Origin: Promethearchaeota archaeon
GTDB taxonomy: Archaea > Asgardarchaeota > Lokiarchaeia > Sigyniarchaeales > SOKP01
Direction of reading: 5' to 3'
DNA: 13,226 bases
NCBI GenBank assembly: GCA_048940445.1
Contig: JBHLON010000062.1
Coordinates: 1-13,226, forward strand
In this document: positions 1 to 13,226 of the stretch, piece by piece
Layout of the letters: each line of letters opens with the position of its first letter
Position numbering within the stretch: the stretch's first letter is position 1
Program-made: the position numbers and the translations under genes
The notes under the pieces: model-generated
Databases searched by the model: none
Told to the model about the DNA's origin: nothing
Seen by the model: only the letters and a program-made list of their open reading frames with translations

Positions 1-2
1 CA

Positions 3-1355
3 ATGAAATTATCCAAATTAATAATACTACTAGCTGGAATTTCAATATTTATAATTGGAGCTATTTTAATTGGATTTACTATTTGGAATATTATCATTCC
101 TACACCTAAAGCAGAGATAATTGAGTGGAATAGTACATGGGGTGGTGACGGAAATGATTATGGCAATGGAATAGCAATAGATTCATTAGATAATGTGTAT
201 ATAGTGGGATCTACAGGGAGCTTCGGAGCGGGAAGTTCTGATATTGTTTTAGTGAAATACAATGAAAATGGTCAAGAACAATGGAATTGCACTTGGGGTG
301 GTGACGGAAATGATTATGGCAATGGAATAGCAATAGATTCATTAGATAATATATATATAGTGGGATCTACAGGGAGCTTCGGAGCGGAAAATAATGATTT
401 TGTATTAGTAAAATATGATAACAATGGCGTGCAACAATGGAATCGCACATGGGATGGAGGTTATGATGATTATGCTAGAGATGTGGCAGTGGATTCATCA
501 GGCAATATATTTATTGTAGGTGATAAATTTAAATTAGCAGAAGACATTGTTGATATTTTGCTGGTAAAATATGATAACAATGGTGTTCAGCAATGGAATT
601 GCACATGGGATAGAGGTTATTATGATTATGGCAATGGAGTGGCAATAGATTCATCAAACGACGTATTTATTGTGGGAGATACGGCGACGAAGAATGGGGA
701 TGGTATGTATAGTTCAGTAGTCCTTGTGAAATATGACCAAAATGGTATCCAACAATGGAATCACACATTGGGCAAAAAAGAAGAAGACAATTTTGGAAAT
801 GCAGTAATAGTGGACACATCAGATAATGTATATCTTGTGGGAACTACCCCGGGTCCAGTGTCAATTTGTGCATTACTGGTAAAATATAATGGAAGTGGCA
901 TAAAAAAATGGAATCGTATATGGGGTGAGTTCTACACTTATAATAGTGGTAATGATGTAGCAGTAGATTTGTTTGGCAATGTATATCTTGTAGGGGCTGC
1001 AGAAAGTGGTTTTGAACCGGGCAATTATGATGCTATATTATTGAAATATGACGGAAACGGCACTTTACAAAACAATTATACATGGGGTGGAGATCAAGTT
1101 GATATTGGCTATGGAGTGGCAGTGAATTCATTAGGTAACGTATATATAGTAGGATATACAAATAGTTTTGGAGCTGGAGAGATTGATATGTTTCTGGTGA
1201 AATATAGGAATATTGGATTATCTTTTAATAATGTTGTAATGATCCAAATTATTGTACCAATAGAGAGTTTACTAGGAGTAATTATAATTTTTATAAAAAA
1301 TCATAACCTTAACTTCATAAACAAGACTAGTATAAAAGATTGTTTTAAGGAGTAG
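3..1355 (+). CDS. Membrane-anchored/secreted SBBP-type beta-propeller repeat protein (7 repeats of about 52 aa)
   Basis: N-terminal hydrophobic segment (LIILLAGISIFIIGAILIGFTIW). Seven repeats of WNxTWGG..D.G.GxAxDS.xNVYIVG..D..LVKYDxNG. Second hydrophobic stretch near the C-terminus (VVMIQIIVPIESLLGVIIIFI). Confidence 0.88.
   Translation: MKLSKLIILLAGISIFIIGAILIGFTIWNIIIPTPKAEIIEWNSTWGGDGNDYGNGIAIDSLDNVYIVGSTGSFGAGSSDIVLVKYNENGQEQWNCTWGGDGNDYGNGIAIDSLDNIYIVGSTGSFGAENNDFVLVKYDNNGVQQWNRTWDGGYDDYARDVAVDSSGNIFIVGDKFKLAEDIVDILLVKYDNNGVQQWNCTWDRGYYDYGNGVAIDSSNDVFIVGDTATKNGDGMYSSVVLVKYDQNGIQQWNHTLGKKEEDNFGNAVIVDTSDNVYLVGTTPGPVSICALLVKYNGSGIKKWNRIWGEFYTYNSGNDVAVDLFGNVYLVGAAESGFEPGNYDAILLKYDGNGTLQNNYTWGGDQVDIGYGVAVNSLGNVYIVGYTNSFGAGEIDMFLVKYRNIGLSFNNVVMIQIIVPIESLLGVIIIFIKNHNLNFINKTSIKDCFKE
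138..387 (+). repeat. Near-identical intragenic direct repeat: 138-231 and 294-387 (94 bp, period 156 bp)
   Basis: TGGGGTGGTGACGGAAATGATTATGGC...CTTCGGAGCGG occurs twice and differs only at GTG vs ATA (2 nt). It encodes the first parts of blades 1 and 2. Confidence 0.95.
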
Positions 1356-1372
1356 AAAAGGTGATTTTTTCA

Positions 1373-1690
1373 TTATGCATAAGCTCCCTTAACAGGGAAT
1401 ATCAAACTTATAATGAGGGCTAGATACATCATAAAAATTAAAATTATACTACCAATGATAATCATAACTGAGAAAACAGATAATTTTTTAGGTAATAGCA
1501 GAAAAATTCCAAAAAAGGTACAAAAAGGTCCATAGAATAATCCAATTATAAAAAATAGTCTACCCAGCTTTCCTGCAAGAGACAATATTGTAAGTACATC
1601 GAATAAGATCCCTACTACTAATAAAAGGATCTTGAATACTAACTTTACAATCTTCTTTCTTCTATAACTGTTAGAACCCATTTTTGTCAT
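1373..1690 (-). CDS. Small hypothetical integral membrane protein (about 3 TM helices)
   Basis: Basic N-terminus (RRKKIVK) followed by three hydrophobic segments. ATG start. Convergent with the beta-propeller gene. Confidence 0.7.
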   Translation of the reverse strand: MTKMGSNSYRRKKIVKLVFKILLLVVGILFDVLTILSLAGKLGRLFFIIGLFYGPFCTFFGIFLLLPKKLSVFSVMIIIGSIILIFMMYLALIISLIFPVKGAYA

Positions 1691-1754
1691 TTATATAAAA
1701 AGAGTAATCCGTTTTTAAAAATTTGCCCATAAAAATTATATTTATAAGGGTGAC

Positions 1755-1774
1755 TTATGGATCGTTGTCCATAA
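1755..1774. promoter_or_regulatory. Perfect inverted repeat TTATGGA-N6-TCCATAA, putative operator
   Basis: Lies between a TATA-like TTTATAA (1741-1747) and the start of the 1797 gene, in a divergent intergenic region. Confidence 0.55.
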
Positions 1775-1796
1775 AAAAAATATGGATGGTGATAGT

Positions 1797-2084
1797 TTGA
1801 AAATATTTGCCTACAACATAACTAAGGAAGAAATCACAATGGATAAATTTCAACCTTTTTTAAAAGAAGTAGCTCAGCATGCTTGGGATCTTTATAAAAG
1901 AGGAATTCTTCGAGAATTTTATTTTAGAACAGATAAGCTGGGTGCTATGTTAATTCTTGAATATAAAGATGTTAATGAAGCTAAAAATTACATTAAAGAA
2001 TTACTATTCGTAAAAGAAGGACTAGTAGAGTATGAATTTGTTCCTGTAGGAGCTTTTGCTCTCTTTGAAAACCTGTTTAAATAA
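1797..2084 (+). CDS. Muconolactone delta-isomerase-like / YciI-like dimeric alpha-beta barrel protein
   Basis: Pattern AQHAWDLYKRGILREFYFR..GAMLILE..DVNEAK..I.EL.FVKEGLVEYEFVPV resembles the MIase-like family as I recall it. TTG at 1797 follows GGTGA (1788-1792); the ORF track starts at 1782. Confidence 0.65.
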   Translation: MKIFAYNITKEEITMDKFQPFLKEVAQHAWDLYKRGILREFYFRTDKLGAMLILEYKDVNEAKNYIKELLFVKEGLVEYEFVPVGAFALFENLFK

Positions 2085-2125
2085 ATTTACTATTATTTTT
2101 CTTATTTTATAATTTTATCTGAAAG

Positions 2126-2860
2126 CTATAACTTCATCTTAAATTCTTGTAAATTATCTGGAGGCCAAGCTCGTGGAGTTGACCCTTTTTTTAAAAATCG
2201 ATGGTCACATATTAGAGCACCATTCCCAATAGTTTGAGTCCGTGAAAATCCATATCCAAATATATTAGCTTGAGCAAAATCGGACAAGCATAAGAAAGGT
2301 GTGTACTTTTCTGCCCCTAACTTTTTAAAGACTTTATGAATTCCACATTCCGTAAAAGTATAACCATAATCAAATGTTTTACCATCACCTTCTACAAACT
2401 CCATAACAAAATCGTCTTGATATTTTTTTTGTTGTGTTGTTTTTGCGTAACTTTTATTAAAATTGATATAAGTGTCGTTAAAATATTGATCTACAGGATT
2501 TTGACCTGATTTTTCTAATTTATGGACTTTTATCGCGTTTACCTTTTCCCAAAACTTATAACTAAATTCCCCAATTTCACGGTAGGTCATACCTGTTTTT
2601 TCAAGAATACGAAAAATTGCTAGCATAGCAACACAATCTATCAGCATAAGTGTGGAAGGATTTTTCTTACCTCCGATATATGGTATTTCTGGGATTAGAT
2701 TCTCATATTCATTTCGCATTTTTTTAAAAATCTCTTCTATTTCCAGTTTATTGAATTTCTTTAGTAATAATTCTTTTGATATATGTAAATACTTATCAAA
2801 TTGATTGTCTAATTTTGTTTTATTTTTCAGATAATAATCATTTACTATTTTAATAGGCAT
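2126..2860 (-). CDS. L-2-amino-thiazoline-4-carboxylic acid hydrolase-family (ATC_hydrolase-like) protein
   Basis: Motifs IPYIGGKKNP, TECGIHK, FLCLSDF and SRTQTIGNGALICDHRF. ATG at 2860 with GGAG upstream; the ORF track uses TTG 2866. Confidence 0.8.
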   Translation of the reverse strand: MPIKIVNDYYLKNKTKLDNQFDKYLHISKELLLKKFNKLEIEEIFKKMRNEYENLIPEIPYIGGKKNPSTLMLIDCVAMLAIFRILEKTGMTYREIGEFSYKFWEKVNAIKVHKLEKSGQNPVDQYFNDTYINFNKSYAKTTQQKKYQDDFVMEFVEGDGKTFDYGYTFTECGIHKVFKKLGAEKYTPFLCLSDFAQANIFGYGFSRTQTIGNGALICDHRFLKKGSTPRAWPPDNLQEFKMKL

Positions 2861-3053
2861 AATCAAATTCTCTCCAATTTTTTTTAGAGTTAAATTAAGT
2901 CTACGTTAAAATATGGATAGTTTCACTTTTAAAATTTACAATGATAACAACTAATGATTTTATTATCATTTTTAATATTAGTTAGGACGTTAGAATTTAT
3001 TTATGGATATCTTGATATAATAGAATTTGTTAGAAGTTGAAAAAGATAAAGAT

Positions 3054-3112
3054 TAAGGGAGGGAAAAGGTAAAGGAAAAGTAATAAAAGATCAATCCAAC
3101 ACCCCTCCCTTA
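3054..3112. repeat. Perfect 10-bp inverted repeat TAAGGGAGGG-N39-CCCTCCCTTA
   Basis: Arms at 3054-3063 and 3103-3112. GC-rich arms in an otherwise AT-rich intergenic region. Confidence 0.8.
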
Positions 3113-3192
3113 GGTACTAATAACGGAAATGAAAAATGTGCCCGTGAAATTCGTGAAAGTTTTACAAATTTTAAAAAAATAAAAAATTTGGA

Positions 3193-3264
3193 TTAATATA
3201 CTATATATGCTGGATTATGAATAACAATTATATCAGATACTCTTAATTTTTCTTTTTTATTCAT
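3193..3264 (-). CDS. Unannotated 23-aa micropeptide MNKKEKLRVSDIIVIHNPAYIVY
   Basis: Manually translated. Strong SD GTGAGGAG just upstream of the ATG (same octamer as before the MFS gene). Starts 43 nt after the 86-aa gene and is followed by T-runs on the minus strand. Confidence 0.55.
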   Translation of the reverse strand: MNKKEKLRVSDIIVIHNPAYIVY

Positions 3265-3307
3265 GTTTCTCTCCTCACATTTTTTTTAATTTTTATTATT
3301 TGGTTTT

Positions 3308-3568
3308 TTAACCCATAAAAAATCTCCCTCTAATAGGAAGGCCGCGCTTGAGCTGGTCGATATGAACTTGCCCCTCTAATATTTTAGCGTTTGATTTGGA
3401 ATTAGCATTTATTTTTGAAAGTCTCTTAATAAATGATCGTGATTTGCTCTGCTCCTCTTTTGCCTTTGTGTATTCTATGCGTTCATCTACTACAGGGAGC
3501 GACTCTACTATACATGCTTTAACCTCTAAGAGGTCTTCTATTCCATGTTTTTCATATACTTGTACCAT
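3308..3568 (-). CDS. 86-aa hypothetical protein, divergent from the wHTH-TPR gene
   Basis: ATG preceded by GGAG with a 9-nt spacer (GGAGTTAAAAAAA-ATG). Charged helical composition. No family recognised. Confidence 0.7.
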   Translation of the reverse strand: MVQVYEKHGIEDLLEVKACIVESLPVVDERIEYTKAKEEQSKSRSFIKRLSKINANSKSNAKILEGQVHIDQLKRGLPIRGRFFMG

Positions 3569-3637
3569 TTTTTTTAACTCCTTTTTTTTAGTTTTTTTCT
3601 TAAGAATTAATAATCACTAACTGCATATTTAGTTTAC

Positions 3638-3696
3638 CTTCATGTTGTTCAGATGGAGTTCGAACTTCATATAATGTTCATATCGACTTATGAATA
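3638..3696. promoter_or_regulatory. Cluster of direct and inverted repeats in the divergent promoter, putative operator array
   Basis: TGTTCAGATGGAGTT (3646-3660) and TGTTCATATCGACTT (3675-3689) match at 12/15, each preceded by CTTCAT. Near-palindrome ATGGAGTTCGAACTTCAT (3653-3670). Inverted repeat TTCATA-N6-TATGAA (3677-3694). Confidence 0.6.
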
Positions 3697-3765
3697 AGTA
3701 ACCTTAAATTGAACTTTTAACAATAATATATTAAGGCAATAGGATAAAGTAAAAGAGTGTTTTTT

Positions 3766-6306
3766 ATGAGTAAAACAGAGCAGATAAACTTACCTCCTGA
3801 TGAAATTTTATCTGATTCTCCAATGGGTAAGAGAAATTTTGAGCATATTATACTCTGGATGTTATATAATAATGATGAATGTGAATGGTCTCATTTTACA
3901 GAAGACCCGGTAGGTATTAGTCAATCAACACTTTCGAATTACAAGAATAGGTTAGAAAGCAAAGGATATATAGAGAATGTCAAGCGAGGGTTCTATAAAA
4001 TTACAACTGCTGGGAGAGAACGATATCATGAGATATCACGAAGAAAGAAAACAAAGAGGAGATTGAATTATCCTCCTAAGGCGGTTTTGAGGAAACGTAA
4101 TTATGATCATTGGATCTTATGGATGTTATATAATAATAGTTATTGCAAATGGAGTGATTTTCTCAGGGAGAATTCACCAGTATATATAAACCAATCATCA
4201 CTTTCAAAGAACTTAAATCTATTAATGGAGAATAATTATGTTCAGAAAGATAATAAGCGTTATAAGATCACTGAAGCGGGAAAGATAGAATATTCTCGCA
4301 TGTTGCGGTTATATGATCTTGATCGTCAATCAATTTTGGAAGAAGAAAGCAAAAGAATTGAAGAGATCACCAAAAAGACTCGTGATTTTTTTAGGAAATA
4401 TAATATTGAGGATAAGGATGTAAAATTTCGTTTTTTAAATAATGTATTAAAGATGGATTATGCCAAAGTCCAGAATTCATTAGATGATGAGGAAGATTTT
4501 AAGAAAATATTATTATTTTTCTCGATAAATCATCCTGATTCATATCCAAGACACATATCTCCAGATGAATTTTCATTAAGATTTGACATAGAAGATATTA
4601 TCTTAAAATTTCATATTCATCAGATTGTAGAGAAGGAGATATATCCAATTAAGTTTTGGAGCTTAAGGTTCGATGGTGATAAAGTCTATTATTTTCAGTC
4701 AGATGAAAAGATTGAGAAAGTGTTACGGGCTATTGTAGATGATTATATTACAAAATTTACTTATTTAAATAAGTTAAGCGGATACCCTTATTATACTATG
4801 TATACCTTAATCGATGATATTATTGAGGACATTTGCAATGATTTATTTCATGGACACTTGAAGGATCCATTACGAGAATTTTTACCAGAATATATTAAAT
4901 ATTTATCTTACAAGGTAGAAACTGAAAAACAGTTAGTTGATCCTTCTGATAAGTTAGAGGGATTTATTTATGAAAATATACCTTCAATGCTTCGAACTTA
5001 TGAAGCAGAGGATTTAGATCATCCTCTTAAAAGGAGCGATGAAGTTAGATATTATTTATATCCAGATGTTTTAAAAGCATTGGCAGAATATTATATAAAA
5101 GACATTAAACCTTTATTTGAAAAAGTCTTATCTTGTATAGATAAGAAAGATGTAAATCAAGCCTTAGAATTAATAGATTCTGCAATTAAGACTGACTCAG
5201 AAAAAATAGAGTTATATATATTAAAGTCAATTGTTCTGTGTCTTTATAGTAACCTGAAAGGAGCTATTGATATTTTAAAGACTCAACTTGATAGATTGGA
5301 AGAATTAGGCCAAGAGGATCTGTTGCCAATAATTTTATTCGTCCTTAGTTTTTTACATTTATCATTAGGTGATTTTAAGAAATCCTTTGACATTTCAGAA
5401 GAAACATTAAAATCTTATACTAATCATCCTATTTCCCATTTGAATAGAGCAATGGTGTTAGGATATAACACAATTTTTGAATGGGACAAAAGTCAAGTTA
5501 AATTAGGAGATATGCTTAAAGAAACAGAGAAAGCTATTTCACTTGAATCTAGCGAATTGAATATATCACGATACTTTCAATTAAAAGCGACAATTTTATT
5601 TGAGTTAAGACAATATGAGGCAGCCTTCGAAGCGATAGATAAGGCGATTGAAATAAGACCTAAAATTATCGACTACTATTATAATAAAATTCTCGGATTT
5701 AACTTAAGCAAGAGATTCGATGAAGCGATAGAATTGATTGGAGAGATAATACCCCAATTTCCTGATGAAAGTAGACATTTATTACATAAAAAGGCATATA
5801 TCTTGGTTAAGATGGGATATTATGAAAATAACCCGAAAAGGTATGAGGAGTCTTATGAAATTTTAGCTAAACTCATAGAACTATATCATAATGATAATGA
5901 TTTAGTTAATAGTATGGTTTATGGTTTAGCTTATTTAGATCGTGAGAAGGAAGCTATAGAATTAGGTAAAAAACTAATAAGCTTAGAGCCTAACAATGGA
6001 AATTATCATGATTCTTATGGAGAGATCTTAATGATGTTCAAACACTATAAGAAAGCGATCGAGTTGTTCAAAACGGCTATAAGTCTTGAACCTTACGGAT
6101 TTTTTGTATATCAGACTTTCATAAAAATGGGGATTTGTTATTATTATCTTAAAGAGTACGATCTAGCCACGCAAATGTTAGAGCAAGGAAAGGATTACAC
6201 CCATTCATGTTTATGTGAAATGGAGAAAAAAGAACATTGGTTAAAGAAAGCAAATAATTATTTATTAAAAATCAAACAAATTGAATTAAATTCTGATGAA
6301 GATTAA
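3766..6306 (+). CDS. Large regulator-like protein: two tandem winged-helix DNA-binding domains + central helical region + C-terminal TPR repeats
   Basis: Duplicated N-terminal unit: KRNFEHIILWMLYNN..ISQSTLSNYKNRLESKGYIE..YKITTAG and KRNYDHWILWMLYNN..INQSSLSKNLNLLMENNYVQ..YKITEAG. TPR-type segments such as YEAAFEAIDKAIEIRP and YKKAIELFKTAISLEP. ATG at 3766; the ORF track uses GTG 3757. Confidence 0.88.
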   Translation: MSKTEQINLPPDEILSDSPMGKRNFEHIILWMLYNNDECEWSHFTEDPVGISQSTLSNYKNRLESKGYIENVKRGFYKITTAGRERYHEISRRKKTKRRLNYPPKAVLRKRNYDHWILWMLYNNSYCKWSDFLRENSPVYINQSSLSKNLNLLMENNYVQKDNKRYKITEAGKIEYSRMLRLYDLDRQSILEEESKRIEEITKKTRDFFRKYNIEDKDVKFRFLNNVLKMDYAKVQNSLDDEEDFKKILLFFSINHPDSYPRHISPDEFSLRFDIEDIILKFHIHQIVEKEIYPIKFWSLRFDGDKVYYFQSDEKIEKVLRAIVDDYITKFTYLNKLSGYPYYTMYTLIDDIIEDICNDLFHGHLKDPLREFLPEYIKYLSYKVETEKQLVDPSDKLEGFIYENIPSMLRTYEAEDLDHPLKRSDEVRYYLYPDVLKALAEYYIKDIKPLFEKVLSCIDKKDVNQALELIDSAIKTDSEKIELYILKSIVLCLYSNLKGAIDILKTQLDRLEELGQEDLLPIILFVLSFLHLSLGDFKKSFDISEETLKSYTNHPISHLNRAMVLGYNTIFEWDKSQVKLGDMLKETEKAISLESSELNISRYFQLKATILFELRQYEAAFEAIDKAIEIRPKIIDYYYNKILGFNLSKRFDEAIELIGEIIPQFPDESRHLLHKKAYILVKMGYYENNPKRYEESYEILAKLIELYHNDNDLVNSMVYGLAYLDREKEAIELGKKLISLEPNNGNYHDSYGEILMMFKHYKKAIELFKTAISLEPYGFFVYQTFIKMGICYYYLKEYDLATQMLEQGKDYTHSCLCEMEKKEHWLKKANNYLLKIKQIELNSDED

Positions 6307-6330
6307 GAGAAAAGAATACGTGACGACATT

Positions 6331-7047
6331 ATGGGATGCAAATTTGTTAAGGGGGTTAAAGAAGATAGCAGATTTGGTAAGGTTTTATCTGTAAATTTTA
6401 ATCCTTTTAAAGTATGTAATTTTAATTGTGTTTATTGTGGCACTGGACCAACAACGGATAAAACTATTGAAAGAAGAGAATTTTATCCACCTGGAGAAAT
6501 TTTTAGAGAAATACGAGAGTATATTGAACTTAAAGGAGAACCCGATTATGTTTGGGTCACGGGATTTGGAGAACCTACCCTCTATGCATCCTTTAAACAG
6601 TTTTCTATGCTGATAAAAAGAGTGTATCCAAATATAAAAATTGGGATTTCGACAAATGGTTCTCTCCTTTCTCGTAAGGAAGTAAGAGACGATTGTTCCC
6701 TCTGTGATTTAATGCTAATTGAAATTGTAAGTGTTTTTCCAGATGAATTTACTGAGATTTGTAGACAACATGAGGATATTTATTTAGAAGATCTGATTGA
6801 AGGTGTAAAAGTATTTCGAAAAACCTTTAGAGGTGAATTAATCATAGTAAGTGTATTTTTAGAAGGAATTAACGATAATCAGAAAAGTTTGCTTGGCTTG
6901 AAAAAATTAATATCAGAGTTACAACCAACTACATTTCTTCTAAAGAATTATGCATGTAGAGGATACAAATCGCTTAATGGGGAATTTAAGAAACTTGCGC
7001 AGAACATATTTAATGATCTACCTATTGAGGTAATCTATAAAATCTAA
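6331..7047 (+). CDS. Radical SAM Fe-S protein (COG0731 / TYW1-related short form)
   Basis: CxxxCxxC motif CNFNCVYC, preceded by SRFGKVLSVN. Also GFGEPTLY and STNGSLL. No SPASM cysteine cluster. Confidence 0.88.
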   Translation: MGCKFVKGVKEDSRFGKVLSVNFNPFKVCNFNCVYCGTGPTTDKTIERREFYPPGEIFREIREYIELKGEPDYVWVTGFGEPTLYASFKQFSMLIKRVYPNIKIGISTNGSLLSRKEVRDDCSLCDLMLIEIVSVFPDEFTEICRQHEDIYLEDLIEGVKVFRKTFRGELIIVSVFLEGINDNQKSLLGLKKLISELQPTTFLLKNYACRGYKSLNGEFKKLAQNIFNDLPIEVIYKI

Positions 7048-7084
7048 TTATTATTAATTTCTAAAATGTTAAGAATAAAGAGAA

Positions 7085-7918
7085 TTGAAGGTTGAGGCTA
7101 AATTGGAAAAGGCAAGATATGTTTATAATGAAAAGGCATCTATATTAGTAAGTATAAAGGAGTTAATAAGGAATAACTTAAAGGGATTCGCAGAATTTTT
7201 AGAACATATTCAGAAAGAAAAGCCACATTTAATAGATGCATACCTTGAAGAAGTAATTTCTAAATGTAATATAAATGAGGATTATGGAATTATTGTTGCT
7301 GGAGAGGATGAAATTTTTCAAAATAATCCTAAACTGCTCAACTCAAGCATTAATATAATATTGAATTTACTGAATTATACCAGATACCAAAAGGACTCCA
7401 ATGATGAAAAAATTAATATAAATATGGTAGATCTTGTCAAAGTATATACTAATTTTGATTATATTCAAGCTAGCTCATTATTAAGAGTCATGTCAAGAGA
7501 AGAAGCAATAAGCTTCATTAAAGAATACATTTCACAGCAAGTTAAGAAAAAAAATAACCCAAATAATTATTATAATAACTTTGAAGAGTTAATTGAAAAT
7601 TTTGTGAGTATTAATAAGACATGGCAAGCTCATGATGGGAAGATAATGATAGTTAATGGAAATAAAATGATTTTAAAAGTTAATAAATGTAGATGGGCTG
7701 AAGAGCTACTAGAACAGGGATGTGATAAAGAACTCTGCTTTTCTATGATGTGTTATCAAGATTTTGCACAAGTGAAAAACTATAATCCAAGTTTCACCTT
7801 AACAAGGACTAAAACAATAATGCAAGGAGATGATTATTGTGATTTTTGTTATCATGATAACCGTGCCCTTGAAGAGATAAATCACCCTTCTATTGAATTT
7901 TGGAAAAATTTTGATTAA
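7085..7918 (+). CDS. Protein with a C-terminal ATC_hydrolase-like domain
   Basis: KVNKCRWAE, MMCYQDF and NPSFTLTRTKTIMQGDDYCDFCY motifs. TTG start is uncertain. Confidence 0.8.
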   Translation: MKVEAKLEKARYVYNEKASILVSIKELIRNNLKGFAEFLEHIQKEKPHLIDAYLEEVISKCNINEDYGIIVAGEDEIFQNNPKLLNSSINIILNLLNYTRYQKDSNDEKININMVDLVKVYTNFDYIQASSLLRVMSREEAISFIKEYISQQVKKKNNPNNYYNNFEELIENFVSINKTWQAHDGKIMIVNGNKMILKVNKCRWAEELLEQGCDKELCFSMMCYQDFAQVKNYNPSFTLTRTKTIMQGDDYCDFCYHDNRALEEINHPSIEFWKNFD

Positions 7919-7956
7919 AATATAATCCTTTATTTTTGAAAAAAGAGAATAAGATA

Positions 7957-8526
7957 ATGAAAAATATATTATGTTATATATACAAAAAATTTGTAGATTT
8001 TGAAACTGTGTTTACTTGTTCTTACTTGAATGAAATGCAAGATTATAATCTAATATATATTGCTTATGATAGGAATCCAGTGATAAGTTCAGGAGGTCTA
8101 AAGATAATCCCGGATAAGACTGTCTCTGAAGGATCTAATGTGGAAGAAGTTTATGGTCTTTTAATACCAGGAGGATCTGAAAGAGAGCTCAAACCAGAAT
8201 TAATGTCATTAATTCAAAATCTTAATAAAGAAAAAAAATTAATTGCTGCCATATGCGCAGCGCCTGAGTTTCTAGCTAAAAGTGGTATACTTAACGATAA
8301 AAAATATACAACTACATTAATGCCTGAGTACTATGAAGAGAAGAAAGAAGTCGATCCATTTCCAAGGAACAATTATGTTGAGAGTAGATTAATAAAAGAT
8401 TCAAATTTAATTACTGCTAAAGGTCACGCTTTTATTGATTTTGCTCTAGAAGTTTGGGATTATTTTGGATTATATAGTAATAAATCAGAATTAGAGCAAG
8501 ATAGAATACTCCTAACTCCTGGTTAA
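7957..8526 (+). CDS. DJ-1/PfpI family protein (class I glutamine amidotransferase-like fold)
   Basis: FVDFE (conserved Glu), SSGGLKIIPD, LLIPGG, nucleophile elbow IAAICAAPEFLAKSG, and NLITAKG. ATG at 7957; the ORF track uses TTG 7936. Confidence 0.9.
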   Translation: MKNILCYIYKKFVDFETVFTCSYLNEMQDYNLIYIAYDRNPVISSGGLKIIPDKTVSEGSNVEEVYGLLIPGGSERELKPELMSLIQNLNKEKKLIAAICAAPEFLAKSGILNDKKYTTTLMPEYYEEKKEVDPFPRNNYVESRLIKDSNLITAKGHAFIDFALEVWDYFGLYSNKSELEQDRILLTPG

Positions 8527-8534
8527 GAATTGAA

Positions 8535-8572
8535 TCTTTTTTTTTACCTACTTTTTCTATCTTTTTTCTTTT
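8535..8572 (+). terminator. T-rich tract, probable archaeal-type terminator for the + strand operon
   Basis: Several T runs immediately after the DJ-1 stop codon, in a convergent junction. Confidence 0.4.
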
Positions 8573-8636
8573 GTATTACTCTAGCTAAACCAGACTATGT
8601 TTTAGGAAACAAAATAGGCATTTTATCTAGAAATTA

Positions 8637-8714
8637 CTACAATCGTCTAAATATAATATCATCCTCTTCTACTTTTACTATATCACCTATCTTAGAATTT
8701 TTCAATATTTTCAT
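8637..8714 (-). CDS. Possible 25-aa peptide or gene remnant MKILKNSKIGDIVKVEEDDIIFRRL
   Basis: Manually translated, directly downstream of the MFS gene on the same strand. Protein-like composition and a double stop (TAG TAA), but no SD. Confidence 0.25.
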   Translation of the reverse strand: MKILKNSKIGDIVKVEEDDIIFRRL

Positions 8715-8751
8715 TTTCAAATTGATTTAGTTTTTTAAATTTAAGAGGAAA

Positions 8752-10041
8752 TTAGACTGAGATGTTATTTATGTTCCCGCTGATTTCTTCAAGTGCCTCC
8801 TGACTATCCATATCGACTTTCCTAATACCCGTAAAACTCCAAAATCCGATAGTGCAGATCGCTCCAATCAATCCACAATAAAAGAACAAAGCCGGTATAC
8901 CTAAAATAAGCGCTAGTGGTCCTGCAATTATTGAACCTACTGGTGAAATTGCTGAAGACAAAGTATTATCAATGGAAGTGATCCTCCCAAGTTTATCTGC
9001 TGGAACCGTAGTTTGAATAAATGTTTGATAGAGCGAATTAACAATTGGTAGATTGAAACCCAATATAACACCCCCAATACCTATTATAAGAAAATATCCT
9101 GGAGGAGCTAAACCAAACATCATATACCCTAACAAAGCCAATATAAGACTAATAAAAATTACACGAATCTTATTGTTCCAATTTTTTTTAATTGAAGTAA
9201 ATAACGCTCCCGCAATCATACCGCCAGTAAAAAACATTTGTACTATTGCTATCGCTACTTCTTTACCTCCATGAACATCAATAATAAATAGAGCAAGAAG
9301 AGAATCAATTGGTCTAATTAAGAAATTCAAAAGCATCGAAAGTATAATTAAAATAACTAATCCGGGAATAAATTTTATTGTTCTAAACCCTATTTTAAAC
9401 TGCTTTATAAAGGACCCTTTACTTTTTTCTTTTTCAGTACTCATTTCTTGAACAGAAGGTATAGTAATTAATAATAAAGGTACCAGCGCTATAAAAAACG
9501 TAATAACATCTACCCAGAATATAAGATAAATTGATGAAGAAAAAATTACTAAAAAAATTGCTGCAACAAATGGCGCGAAAAATTGAACTACTCCCGTAAA
9601 TAAAAAATTTATTCCATTTATTCGTGATAAATTATCTTTTGGTACCATGGTAGGTATAATCGCATTTACTGTGGGTACATGGAATGCCTGACAAATACTT
9701 CGTAAACTAATAAAGATATAAACTATCCAAAAATTTGCTAATCCAAATTGAAATATTAGTATCAGTAAAAATGTAACAAATGCTTCAGAAGAATCTGCGA
9801 TAATAATCAACCGTTTTCGATTAATTCTGTCTGCAATTACACCAGCAAAAGGCATACAAATAGTCATCATTAATATGTATAAAAAGGAAGCAGTTGAAGA
9901 AATTACAGGATTGTTATATACTTCTGCAATCCAAAATGTTAATACAAAAAATACGACCATCGATCCAAATAGAGAAAATAATTGACCGCTCCAGAAAAAC
10001 ATGTAATGCCCAAAAGTCTTCTTTGTAGGAGTAACTTCCAT
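8752..10041 (-). CDS. MFS transporter, MefA-like (DHA3) efflux family
   Basis: FWSGQLFSLFGS, motif A GVIADRINRKRLIIIAD, RSICQAFHVP and QTTVPADKLGR; about 12 TM segments. ATG at 10041 after GTGAGGAG, which overlaps the upstream TGA stop. Confidence 0.92.
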   Translation of the reverse strand: MEVTPTKKTFGHYMFFWSGQLFSLFGSMVVFFVLTFWIAEVYNNPVISSTASFLYILMMTICMPFAGVIADRINRKRLIIIADSSEAFVTFLLILIFQFGLANFWIVYIFISLRSICQAFHVPTVNAIIPTMVPKDNLSRINGINFLFTGVVQFFAPFVAAIFLVIFSSSIYLIFWVDVITFFIALVPLLLITIPSVQEMSTEKEKSKGSFIKQFKIGFRTIKFIPGLVILIILSMLLNFLIRPIDSLLALFIIDVHGGKEVAIAIVQMFFTGGMIAGALFTSIKKNWNNKIRVIFISLILALLGYMMFGLAPPGYFLIIGIGGVILGFNLPIVNSLYQTFIQTTVPADKLGRITSIDNTLSSAISPVGSIIAGPLALILGIPALFFYCGLIGAICTIGFWSFTGIRKVDMDSQEALEEISGNINNISV

Positions 10042-10054
10042 TCCAAAACCCTCC

Positions 10055-11026
10055 TCACAATTTATCAATTAGTTTAAATAAAACTGTGATTACTCTCTCT
10101 GAATCTCCTTCAAATTGGAAGACTCCTTCTTGTAAAGTGCCTTCTATACCTTCTGCAGCTAATTCATAAATCATGTTTTCTGCTTCCTCTTGAGGAATGT
10201 TTAAAACTTGAGCTAATTTTTCTATGGGTATTGAATTCTTGAGTTTAATTAACCCTTGAATCCTCTTTTTTGCTCGTTCCTTATCTGATTGCTCAGAAAT
10301 ATCAATTTTAATTCTCGTTCCATGCTGTTTACTCTTGAATTTCTTATCCATCTCTTTGCCTATACCTTCAATACCAGATTTTTTAACGGCTTCTTCAATT
10401 CTATCTCCTAATTCATTTATACCACTGCCTTCAAAGGCTTCTTCTAAAATTGGTCCAAGCTTTTCTAACTTTCCAATATCTCCAATATTATTTTTTACAA
10501 ATTTCATTGATTTACGAACTAGCTCTGAAACTGAAGCTCCTAATCCTTCTGCCCAATCTCTCCATTCATCACTTACGTCAGGATCAACAGAAATGTTTAT
10601 TCTAGCAGCTTTCTTTGCTGCTTTCTCTACTTTCTTCTTAACTTTTTGGTTAAATTTATCCTCATGAATATCAAGTTTTTCTCTTAATTTCTTAAGTTTC
10701 TCCTTTGCATGCTCGATCCGATCTCGAGCAGACTCTCCATACTGTTCTAACTCTCCTTTGATATCTCCAACTTCTTCTAATAGTTCTTCTCGTTCTGACA
10801 TAAGGTCTTCTAATTCATCTCTTAAATCGTCTTTCACATCCTCTGCCTCATCCTTAATGTCTTCAATAGCTTCTTTTAAATCATCGTGCAACTCATCTAA
10901 TTCGAACATAAGCTCATCTCGTAGATTATGTAATTCCCAAATTACCTTTCCTGCATCTTTATCATCTTTACTTTTATCTTCCTTTTCATTTTCTTTTTTT
11001 TCATCCCATTTTTCATCAAAAGACAT
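10055..11026 (-). CDS. Acidic coiled-coil + ribbon-helix-helix + C-terminal PCI/winged-helix-like domain protein
   Basis: D/E/L-rich helical N-terminus. RHH-like RINISVDPDVSDEWRDWAEGLGASVSELVRKSM. C-terminal IQGLIKLKNSIPIEKLAQVLNIPQEEAENMIYELAAEGIEG. ATG at 11026 after GAGG. Confidence 0.75.
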   Translation of the reverse strand: MSFDEKWDEKKENEKEDKSKDDKDAGKVIWELHNLRDELMFELDELHDDLKEAIEDIKDEAEDVKDDLRDELEDLMSEREELLEEVGDIKGELEQYGESARDRIEHAKEKLKKLREKLDIHEDKFNQKVKKKVEKAAKKAARINISVDPDVSDEWRDWAEGLGASVSELVRKSMKFVKNNIGDIGKLEKLGPILEEAFEGSGINELGDRIEEAVKKSGIEGIGKEMDKKFKSKQHGTRIKIDISEQSDKERAKKRIQGLIKLKNSIPIEKLAQVLNIPQEEAENMIYELAAEGIEGTLQEGVFQFEGDSERVITVLFKLIDKL

Positions 11027-11136
11027 AATAAAACCTCTTTTAATCAAATTTTTCTAATATTTAATAAAATTTTTTTACATATTTACTTAAATCTAAAAAT
11101 CTTTTTACTATTTCTTGCAAATTAAATTCACTAATT

Positions 11137-12246
11137 TTATATTTTCCATTTACCTTCTTCATAAATTACTTGGCCATCCGCTAAAACTTTAGAGCCAGGT
11201 ACTTTCATATCTTTTAATATATCCCAATGTATACCACAATCATTCTTGGAACCTAATTCTTTAAGTCCAGCTCCAAGAGCGCAATGAATCGTACCTCCAA
11301 GCTTTTCATCAAAAAGTATGTTTTTAGTAAATATAGTGATTCCATAATTCGTACCAATAGCAAATTCCCCGAGTATATCTGCATTTTCTATTTTTAATAT
11401 TTCATCCATTAATTCACTGCCTTTATCGGCTGAAAAATTCACTACTTTTCCATCTTTAAATTCTAAATAAATATTTTGAATTTCTCTTCCTTGAAATATC
11501 CCTGGATATGTAAATCGAATATGACCATTTACTGAATCTTCTATTGGACTAGTACAGACTTCACCGTCGGGTAAATTTAAATGACCACAATCATTTTGCC
11601 AAAGCCTACCCTTTATTGACATAGAAAGATTTGTATCCTCACCAAGCACTTGGATTTTATCAACTTTATTCAAATAATTACAAAAATTTTCTTGCTTTTC
11701 TTCTACTCTTAACCACTCTTTCACAGGATCTTCTTTATCCAAGTATAATGCTTTTTCTATAAAATCAAAGTAGGAAAACAAATCCATATTTGCCTCTTGA
11801 GCCAACGAATCACAAGGATAGGGTACAATTAGATATTTTAATTCTTTACTTCCAATCCTCTGCATTAGGATATTCCAAACTTCTCTATTAGCGGGTGATC
11901 CTTGTGATGTTGCTATTAATTTTGGATCAACCACACCTAATTTTCGAGTATTATAATCTCCAGATATTATGATATAAGCATCAAATTCTTTAAGTAAGGT
12001 TTTTACAATTGGATCTACATATTGTAATTGTTCCTCTGATGCATATTTATATCTTAATTCCGTGACTCCTTCAATCCCCACAAGTAATAGAGGATGAGCT
12101 CCAGCTTTAATTGTTTCGACATATAATGTTTGGAAGAGATCCTTTGCTAAGGCTGGACCAGAAATACATACTCTATCTCCTTTTTCAATATTAGTTGAAT
12201 AATTGATTGCTAAATTAGCTAACTTTTCATAAAATGGGTTAATCAT
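11137..12246 (-). CDS. Aminopeptidase, thermophilic metalloprotease family M29 (AmpT/PepS-like)
   Basis: NLPDGEV, GEFAIGTN, ILFDEKLGGTIHCALG and IHWDI motifs. AAGGAGG RBS. Confidence 0.93.
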   Translation of the reverse strand: MINPFYEKLANLAINYSTNIEKGDRVCISGPALAKDLFQTLYVETIKAGAHPLLLVGIEGVTELRYKYASEEQLQYVDPIVKTLLKEFDAYIIISGDYNTRKLGVVDPKLIATSQGSPANREVWNILMQRIGSKELKYLIVPYPCDSLAQEANMDLFSYFDFIEKALYLDKEDPVKEWLRVEEKQENFCNYLNKVDKIQVLGEDTNLSMSIKGRLWQNDCGHLNLPDGEVCTSPIEDSVNGHIRFTYPGIFQGREIQNIYLEFKDGKVVNFSADKGSELMDEILKIENADILGEFAIGTNYGITIFTKNILFDEKLGGTIHCALGAGLKELGSKNDCGIHWDILKDMKVPGSKVLADGQVIYEEGKWKI

Positions 12247-12268
12247 CTTTTATTATTCCCTCCTTATT

Positions 12269-12952
12269 TTAATCTATTAATTCTTCTTCTTTAATTTGGA
12301 CAGGTTCATTATTAAGGACCGCATTATCATCAACTTCAATAGAATCAACATAATACACCGTTCCTAAAACTTCCGTCTTAGGTCCAATATATACATTCCG
12401 ACCTTTTACATCTTTTTCTACAAGACTATTGATTAAATTAATTTTATCTCTTCCATAAACGCTTCCATATACTTTATTGGGATGCTTATACATGCTTCTT
12501 TTAGTTAAACCTTTACGACCTAGTGAGACGTCAAATCCATTGACATCACCATGAATTGTAGATGATCCCGTAATTTTTATAAGACTCTTTGATTTAAGGC
12601 CGCCTTTTACATGGGTTGAACCTGAGATTCTAATTCCTTGAACAGCCTCAAGATTATTACCTACCCTCAATGAGCCAGAGTTTTCCAATTCCCCCTTGAC
12701 TATTATCTCTCCTTCTATTGAAGTTGTACCCGAAGATCTATAATTGCTGTCTCCATAAAGTGCCCCCATCAATCTAAATGAACCAGAAGTGTCCATTTCA
12801 CCATGAACAATCAAGTTTCCTTCCCCTCTCAAAGAACCAGAAGAATGAAATCCTTCACATTCAAAATTCCCTTTTAGTTTAACTGAACCAGAAGCATTCA
12901 GCTCATCGTTAATCCTTCCTTCAGAAAGGGTTCCTGATCCCGATATTCTCAT
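12269..12952 (-). CDS. Bactofilin-like polymer-forming beta-helix protein (CcmA/COG1664, Bacillus YhbE/YhbF-type)
   Basis: Periodic (I/T/S)SGS..(L/V).G.L repeats of about 17-18 aa. C-terminal VKGRNVYIGPKTEVLGTVYY. GGAGG RBS. Confidence 0.78.
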   Translation of the reverse strand: MRISGSGTLSEGRINDELNASGSVKLKGNFECEGFHSSGSLRGEGNLIVHGEMDTSGSFRLMGALYGDSNYRSSGTTSIEGEIIVKGELENSGSLRVGNNLEAVQGIRISGSTHVKGGLKSKSLIKITGSSTIHGDVNGFDVSLGRKGLTKRSMYKHPNKVYGSVYGRDKINLINSLVEKDVKGRNVYIGPKTEVLGTVYYVDSIEVDDNAVLNNEPVQIKEEELID

Positions 12953-12963
12953 TTTCTTCCCTC

Positions 12964-13050
12964 CTATCTGATAATATAATTAAATCTTATATATTCATAT
13001 CTAATATCTAAATCTTTATTCCAACTTTCTTTCTTTTCTTTTCTCTTCAT
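12964..13050 (-). CDS. Unannotated 28-aa micropeptide MKRKEKKESWNKDLDIRYEYIRFNYIIR
   Basis: Manually translated. GGAG with a 9-nt spacer (GGAGTTAAGTGAA-ATG). Its TAG stop overlaps the bactofilin gene's RBS (TAGGAGG). Confidence 0.55.
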   Translation of the reverse strand: MKRKEKKESWNKDLDIRYEYIRFNYIIR

Positions 13051-13142
13051 TTCACTTAACTCCAAACTATTTCCTTTCTTAATTTTTATTCTTTATACAT
13101 TAATTTTAGTTAACATAAAAAAAATTTAAAAAAAAATTATAT

Positions 13143-13226
13143 TTAATGACACATTGGGCCAGCTAGCGCTCGATTAATAGCATTTCTGGCCTTACTCTTC
13201 TTATAATATTCATAACTATTTTCCAT
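13143..13226 (-). CDS. 27-aa ORF, or 3' end of a longer gene: MENSYEYYKKSKARNAINRALAGPMCH
   Basis: Open frame from the window edge (ATG at 13226) to TAA at 13143-13145. Higher GC than its flanks, followed by long T-runs. Upstream context is outside the window. Confidence 0.55.
   Translation of the reverse strand: MENSYEYYKKSKARNAINRALAGPMCH

Follow-up and report, generated by a model that had tools for sequence, protein, structure and literature searches.

A triple winged-helix/TPR regulator family and its divergent microprotein operons in Lokiarchaeia

A regulator facing two conserved microproteins

The DNA described here is the forward strand of contig JBHLON010000062.1 (positions 1 to 13,226; assembly GCA_048940445.1) of a Promethearchaeota archaeon from the Lokiarchaeia, and this whole stretch of 13,226 nucleotides is called the window throughout. 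It carries a cassette in which a regulator gene on the plus strand (3766–6306) lies head-to-head with two small open reading frames (ORFs) on the minus strand, one encoding an 86-amino-acid (aa) protein (3308–3568) and the other a 23-aa peptide (3193–3264), with operator sites between the divergent genes and a conserved RNA element beyond the peptide gene. An earlier reading made from the letters alone (the sequence-only reading) had proposed a peptide-receptor cassette here, and its parts, namely the regulator, the 86-aa ORF and a 23-aa ORF led by a ribosome-binding site (RBS), are all present where it placed them. The regulator ORF spans 3757/3766–6306; orthologue starts and the database protein agree on ATG 3766, which makes a product of 846 aa likely rather than the 849 aa first given.

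Both small ORFs are preceded by RBS-like sequences (GGAG at 3578–3581 for the 86-aa ORF and GAGGAG at 3271–3276 for the 23-aa ORF), and both are intact at the orthologous loci L011, L012, L021 and L022, where regulator identity is 79–91%. Across ~110 regulator loci drawn from Promethearchaeota (Loki-type Asgard) assemblies, four recurrent microprotein classes (A–D) occupy the divergent strand. Class A comprises peptides of 20–30 aa that begin with basic residues and share the core (I/L)IxIxN, one of them being the 23-aa peptide of the window with its Tyr-containing tail; class B ends in NPKKYxFGLKDL, either as free peptides of 24–30 aa or as the tail of 60–100-aa proteins; class C proteins are ~80 aa long and end in NAKYxEE...RNYG-aromatic, the 86-aa protein being a member with an acidic, variable N-terminal half and the conserved C-terminal motif; and class D is similar to class C. 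The C-terminal residue is aromatic in 65% of class C and 86% of class D, against a background of 12%. The 86-aa protein matched no Pfam family and returned nothing usable from NCBIfam or Atlas, and its AlphaFold2 model (predicted local distance difference test, pLDDT, 59; predicted template modelling score, pTM, 0.23) suggests that it is probably disordered.

At least one microprotein lies opposite 75/107 complete regulators, a descriptive count since the hidden Markov models (HMMs) were derived from the same loci. By an independent ORF rule (RBS, ATG, 19–31 aa, basic start), RBS-led basic ORFs occur at 50/103 regulators (49%) versus 9/1281 background genes of the genome (0.7%), and in the source genome convincing RBS-led members of classes A–C adjoin regulators only. 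The ratio of nonsynonymous to synonymous substitution rates (dN/dS) is 0.34 over 25 non-overlapping pairs, the class A family is under purifying selection by this analysis, and its IxI pattern and conserved Asn point to a function at the protein level. On this comparative evidence, both small ORFs are genuine genes of conserved microprotein families, with predicted translation. Internal mimicry of a host protein by the microproteins was considered and rejected, as no HMM match was significant. Some operons contain up to four different microproteins together with zinc-ribbon proteins, and tandem near-identical peptide genes occur, each with its own promoter. The zinc-ribbon proteins (45–76 aa, two families) follow the peptides in many cassettes (L030, L036, L041, L042, L046, L074, L107, L109; L091, L116, L124, L126).

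Class A peptides are hydrophilic, with a median grand average of hydropathy (GRAVY) of −0.63 (maximum 0.19), a net charge of +4 and a longest uncharged run of median 4. The 23-aa peptide has the basic N-terminus described in the sequence-only reading, but the hydrophobic C-terminal half described with it does not hold up (GRAVY −0.01). Its DIIVI string, which had been likened to a mature SHP peptide, proved to be a local chance resemblance: the Asp preceding the class A core is variable, the conserved core being (I/L)-I-x-I-x-N, and DIIVI was rejected as an SHP-like mature peptide on that ground.

Structurally, the regulator comprises two winged helix-turn-helix (wHTH) domains (aa 25–92 and 113–180), a helical segment, a third wHTH domain (255–311), a further helical segment and a superhelix of tetratricopeptide repeats (TPRs; 433–845). 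Winged helices and TPRs had been recognized before and are matched by Pfam; the third winged helix had been missed, and comes from an AlphaFold model built from 145 sequences (pLDDT 86). The top 50 Foldseek and top 60 HMMER PDB matches were generic TPR proteins only (SPY/OGT, TTC7, APC, Tom70), the middle domain returned nothing usable from Pfam, NCBIfam or Atlas (best 0.78), and PADLOC matches were generic wHTH. In the family alignment, and by our own assignment of groove-facing TPR positions, D749 and E753 show no variation and N715 and Y719 strong conservation, whereas groove positions in two earlier repeats are variable. A fixed patch of these four residues beside variable repeats is as expected for a predicted pocket for an extended peptide, and the acidic pair D749/E753 may suit basic peptides. 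A CxC motif near the C-terminus (window 6205–6220, residues 815–817), kept in most family members, is possibly a metal or redox site.

The family spans 615–992 aa, with short forms (~630 aa) that lack the first TPR block, and forms at least 1,184 clusters. It is present in 105/134 genomes of one Lokiarchaeia family, at up to 10 copies per genome (six in the 3.6-Mb source genome), and in 1/26 other members of the class; a phylum-wide search yielded only five weak matches outside that family, and no homologues were found in the viral contigs searched. A literature search, with most subscription papers beyond its reach, found no description of it. Judged from these comparisons, it is an undescribed family of putative Asgard activators with a microprotein regulon.

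Operator array, promoters and a downstream RNA element

De novo motif search of 104 upstream regions recovered the palindrome AACTTCA-NN-TGAAGTT, which occurs in 2–3 copies per locus, concentrated 60–140 bp before the regulator and often 18 bp apart. The repeated sites already noticed between the genes of the window are three copies of this family-wide palindrome: site 1 (3643–3662; position weight matrix, PWM, score 12.4) abuts site 2 (3661–3680; PWM 15.2, the best match to the palindrome) at 18-bp spacing, and site 3 (3699–3718; PWM 9.4 with leave-out training) sits just upstream of the probable TATA box of the regulator gene (3725–3734, plus strand), itself partly conserved in orthologues. 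When close orthologues are left out of the matrix training, no operator cluster in the 3.6-Mb genome scores higher than the array of the window (3643–3718), at 37.0 versus 30.4 for the next. Both the neighbouring small ORFs and the motif are conserved across the family of >1,000 proteins, as the sequence-only reading had led one to look for.

On the small-ORF side, the B recognition element (BRE)/TATA box of the microprotein operon (AAACTAAATAT, 3624–3635, minus strand) is recognizable by its position and by the family consensus, AAACTATATAT, with site 1 at the fixed family distance before it. The consensus order is operator, ~8 bp, then AAACTATATAT, and in 81/114 loci the distance from the site to the TATA core is the same (offset 9). 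Because the palindrome is placed immediately upstream of BRE/TATA at fixed spacing, which in archaea is an activating position (PMC9426492), we infer that the regulator switches on the microprotein operon. It probably also controls its own gene via site 3, and its transcript would be nearly leaderless.

After the peptide stop codon, an oligo-U tract (3171–3186, minus strand), which recurs after most class A genes, is a probable archaeal terminator. Further downstream lies a conserved RNA element (3054–3136, minus strand), which had gone unnoticed in the earlier analysis and in which the single-stranded motif UUUUCAUUUCCRU (3123–3136) is followed by a 10-bp stem (arms 3103–3112 and 3054–3063). 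The interval 3035–3150 is conserved above the ORFs in close orthologues; at distant loci, a GC-rich hairpin comes 10–25 nt after UUUYCAUUUCCRU, differing in sequence between clades but keeping its pairing, and compensatory changes and G–U pairs in this hairpin favour the operon strand. The element accompanies 23/78 cassettes, whereas none of the regulator loci that lack microproteins has it (0/33); no other copy in the source genome is as good as that of the window. Its support is comparative: taken by itself, the hairpin of the window does not stand out from shuffled sequences (z −1.8), and Rfam gave no match over window positions 2800–3800. Two other explanations of the motif were rejected, namely that it is antisense to start codons (1/24 complements fell at a gene start) and that an opposite-strand ORF covers it (the reading is conserved among close relatives only).

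A second, diverged motif–hairpin copy is found at L011:872–986 (minus strand), ~1.8 kb further on, after an unrelated 292-aa gene, and one zinc-ribbon family often stands directly after the RNA element. The TTYCATTTCCRT motif also recurs in other intergenic regions (C67:15161, plus strand, and C73, minus strand, in the source genome G000, and in many other genomes), sometimes inside or before a hairpin, and may be the hallmark of a broader group of small RNAs in Loki archaea, or a site bound by a protein.

Other cargo and neighbouring genes

Roughly 30% of regulators (32/107) face other cargo and no microprotein. At other paralogues, genes for secreted-type proteins, for a wHTH protein and for a ubiquitin-like protein are driven by the same operator-promoter, and at a further one the cargo position is taken by a GTPase. 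The ubiquitin-like case, from the C110 regulator locus of the source genome (L177:1034–1285, minus strand), is an 84-aa protein with a weak TUG-UBL1 match (E 9e-4); its promoter combines operator and TATA box, and beside it is a regulator paralogue of 447 aa that apparently lacks TPRs. Rab-like small GTPases stand beside 49/119 regulators, much more frequently than their density of 34 per 3.6 Mb would lead one to expect, and are absent from the window clade; they usually have their own conserved TATA region (e.g. L076:745–1296, L002). Eight class C genes in one genus have no regulator in their flanks (up to 5 kb), and 5/8 orphan class B/C cassettes keep the operator–TATA geometry, so that they are probably targets in trans. 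Regulator-distant, high-scoring operator-plus-TATA sites also exist in the source genome (C96:30477, C110:29526, C47:107481, C110:14279, C133:3412), and the genes behind them, which resemble a flavodoxin-type protein, secreted proteins and an aldehyde ferredoxin oxidoreductase, are candidate targets in trans.

Directly downstream of the regulator (24 nt, co-oriented) is a gene for a 238-aa protein of the radical S-adenosylmethionine (SAM) fold (6331–7047, plus strand), kept in orthologues. Such a gene follows 8/119 regulators; the window copy has an intact CxxxCxxC, which is lost after regulators of ~980–990 aa (L116:2–655, L106, L124, L126, L094), possibly a conversion from enzyme to sensor or partner. 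Genes of the ATC-hydrolase family (PF14196) flank the cassette at 2126–2866 (minus strand) and 7085–7918 (plus strand), and an ATC-hydrolase-like gene follows the regulator at 9 loci. An M3 oligopeptidase gene lies near 17/119 regulators (e.g. L132:8651–9967), mostly in one syntenic island with a MalT-like TPR protein, and clade synteny may explain this linkage.

Possible roles of the microproteins

The architecture, operator, promoter geometry and coding conservation of the cassette are established by comparison across sequences. Functionally, the best reading, to which we assign a probability of about 40%, is an activator subject to intracellular feedback from its own microproteins. The winged helices of the regulator would bind the abutting palindromes upstream of BRE/TATA, the bound regulator would switch on the divergent operon, and the third site would control the regulator's own gene. 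The microproteins would be unstructured, cationic, cytoplasmic linear-motif peptides of ~25–30 functional residues, at least one of which would dock into the TPR groove in the same cell and damp the regulator. The result would be a feedback switch with timing, not a pheromone loop between cells; the motif–hairpin beyond the peptide gene would stabilise or end the transcript, or be a small RNA output. In favour of such a ligand role we count the linkage of regulator and microproteins, which has outlasted many duplications, the apparent concentration of microprotein function in short motifs with free ends, the C-terminal residue often being aromatic, the fixed acidic patch of the groove and, clade synteny aside, the M3 oligopeptidase. 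Several observations weigh against it. The invariance of D749/E753 extends to paralogues that face no microprotein; peptide similarity shows a partial correlation of only 0.05 with the TPR domain when the other domains are controlled, and correlates no better with the groove columns (r 0.15) than with the middle domain (0.18); the association of long TPR blocks with class C/D (44/59 versus 5/48) comes down to 4 independent pairs and is not significant; several microprotein types share one operon with zinc-ribbon proteins; and orphan cassettes are retained far from any regulator. Co-folding of the regulator with the 86-aa protein scored 0.00 and was counted neither way.

A close contender, which we rate only slightly lower, is that the microproteins are nothing more than products of the regulon, acting on other components (Rab-like GTPases, or the translation or proteolysis machinery), and that the TPR pocket senses something else, such as a metabolite, a GTPase or a partner like the co-transcribed radical-SAM-fold or ATC-hydrolase-like protein. 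The unrelated cargo under the same operator-promoter, including a GTPase at one paralogue, the operator–TATA geometry of the orphan cassettes, the frequency of Rab-like GTPases beside regulators, the tandem peptide genes with their own promoters, which suggest dosage, and the radical-SAM-fold gene that has lost its cluster in one clade all fit this explanation. However, its targets are candidates only, the window clade keeps both microproteins without a GTPase, and the regulator linkage is tight across many duplications, even if a shared promoter could account for it. We consider it improbable that the 23-aa peptide is a secreted pheromone of the RRNPP kind, exported, matured and re-imported by an oligopeptide permease to activate the regulator. 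The divergent layout with its 197-bp gap, a peptide of 20–30 aa with N-terminal Lys, the activator geometry and the several paralogous pairs per genome would agree with it, as would the many SBP_bac_5 domains and M50 proteases in the genome, which are generic among most prokaryotes. SHPs, however, have a C-terminal hydrophobic stretch (PMC12445099) and other RRNPP propeptides a Sec signal (PMC10075063), and the pheromone reading is weak because the class A peptides are hydrophilic and without export signal and DIIVI is unconserved; moreover, no exporter is conserved beside the cassette (major facilitator superfamily proteins in 11/119 loci), and the regulator is absent from the viral contigs searched. 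Very improbable, in our view, are two further roles. Precursors of peptides that are ribosomally synthesized and modified post-translationally (RiPPs), or antimicrobial peptides of the leaderless type, as substrates of the radical SAM enzyme encoded downstream, would match the cationic, Tyr-containing peptides and the intact CxxxCxxC of the window clade, but the 238-aa enzyme falls below all maturase cut-offs, SPASM/twitch included, its relatives beside 8/119 regulators are mostly cluster-less, the peptides occur without it, and no transporter, protease or immunity gene is conserved. Likewise, a leader or attenuator peptide that governs, through its translation, how the hairpin downstream folds would make sense of an Ile-rich core with U-tract, motif and hairpin behind it, and with a zinc-ribbon gene next in some loci; yet the RNA element is confined to 23/78 cassettes, the next gene is unconserved in the window clade, the choice of Ile codons is unremarkable, and conservation of the Asn and of the IxI pattern points to the protein product.

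Returning to the activator with microprotein feedback, what supports the peptide-receptor analogy in the sequence-only reading is an Rgg-like activator geometry on a small-ORF operon, and what is weak is its pheromone part, given hydrophilic peptides, several unrelated microproteins per operon, mixed cargo and orphan cassettes. RRNPP systems are defined by a receptor of 250–500 aa and a propeptide of 10–100 aa at −60 to 400 bp (PMC10075063), and RRNPPA architecture by an N-terminal single HTH or three-helix bundle (PMC9765709). The 86-aa ORF lies within that distance, 197 bp from the regulator start (the 23-aa ORF is second, at ~500 bp), and TPRs are present by Pfam and the AlphaFold model; the regulator, however, exceeds the receptor size range and has three winged helices, and by hydropathy statistics class A has neither a Sec signal nor an SHP-type hydrophobic stretch. 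Caveats about a missing clear signal peptide and an HTH type unlike RRNPP had already been voiced. Homology to Rap, Rgg, NprR, PlcR, PrgX, AimR or ComR was absent among the Pfam and NCBIfam matches, the top 50 Foldseek matches and the top 60 HMMER PDB matches. The regulator is thus not an RRNPP member, and its system may work like a peptide receptor minus the export step.

With Rgg/SHP and ComR/ComS, the Asgard cassette shares a DNA-binding N-terminus and TPR-type C-terminus, an adjoining short peptide gene that is apparently under positive control, numerous paralogous pairs within a genome and the existence of orphans. Those Bacillota receptors have 250–500 aa and one HTH, whereas the Asgard regulator has 630–990 aa, three winged helices and canonical TPRs, and its peptides are hydrophilic, without export signal, several per operon and expressed from an archaeal BRE/TATA promoter. 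The arbitrium system AimR–AimP–AimX likewise unites at one locus a TPR regulator, a small peptide and, downstream, an element of small RNA type, but AimP carries a Sec signal and is encoded downstream of aimR, and arbitrium is phage-borne, whereas the viral contigs searched yielded no member of the Asgard family. TraM–TraR and MgrB–PhoQ are intracellular systems of small-protein anti-activators or feedback inhibitors, and resemble the proposed circuit in that a regulator induces a small protein able to damp it in the cell; there is no homology, and the feedback in the Asgard system is a proposal. Among archaeal wHTH activators, Ptr2 and TFB-RF1 bind upstream of BRE/TATA, and we know of none with a TPR superhelix or a microprotein regulon. 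OxsR (PMC9426492) resembles the Asgard case in its palindromic site directly upstream of BRE/TATA. All three activators differ from the Asgard regulator in being small single-wHTH proteins.

A bolder version, which we regard as doubtful, is an independently evolved archaeal peptide-sensing system in which triple-wHTH/TPR activators, expanded in Lokiarchaeia, are each tuned by cognate microproteins (intracellularly or after non-classical export), with a small RNA output and with Rab-like GTPases and ubiquitin-like proteins among the targets. To our knowledge, almost nothing has been known of transcription control in Asgard archaea, and the cassette contributes a family of regulators, a precise arrangement of operator and promoter, four microprotein families that lack annotation and evolve under purifying selection, and a new RNA motif. 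Through the regulon, some eukaryote-like genes (Rab-like GTPases, a ubiquitin-like protein) can be placed beside a defined regulator or under its control. Should the peptides be its ligands, the system would be a convergent archaeal counterpart of bacterial peptide-receptor circuits and, if such sensing evolved independently, the first peptide-receptor transcription circuit in archaea that we know of.

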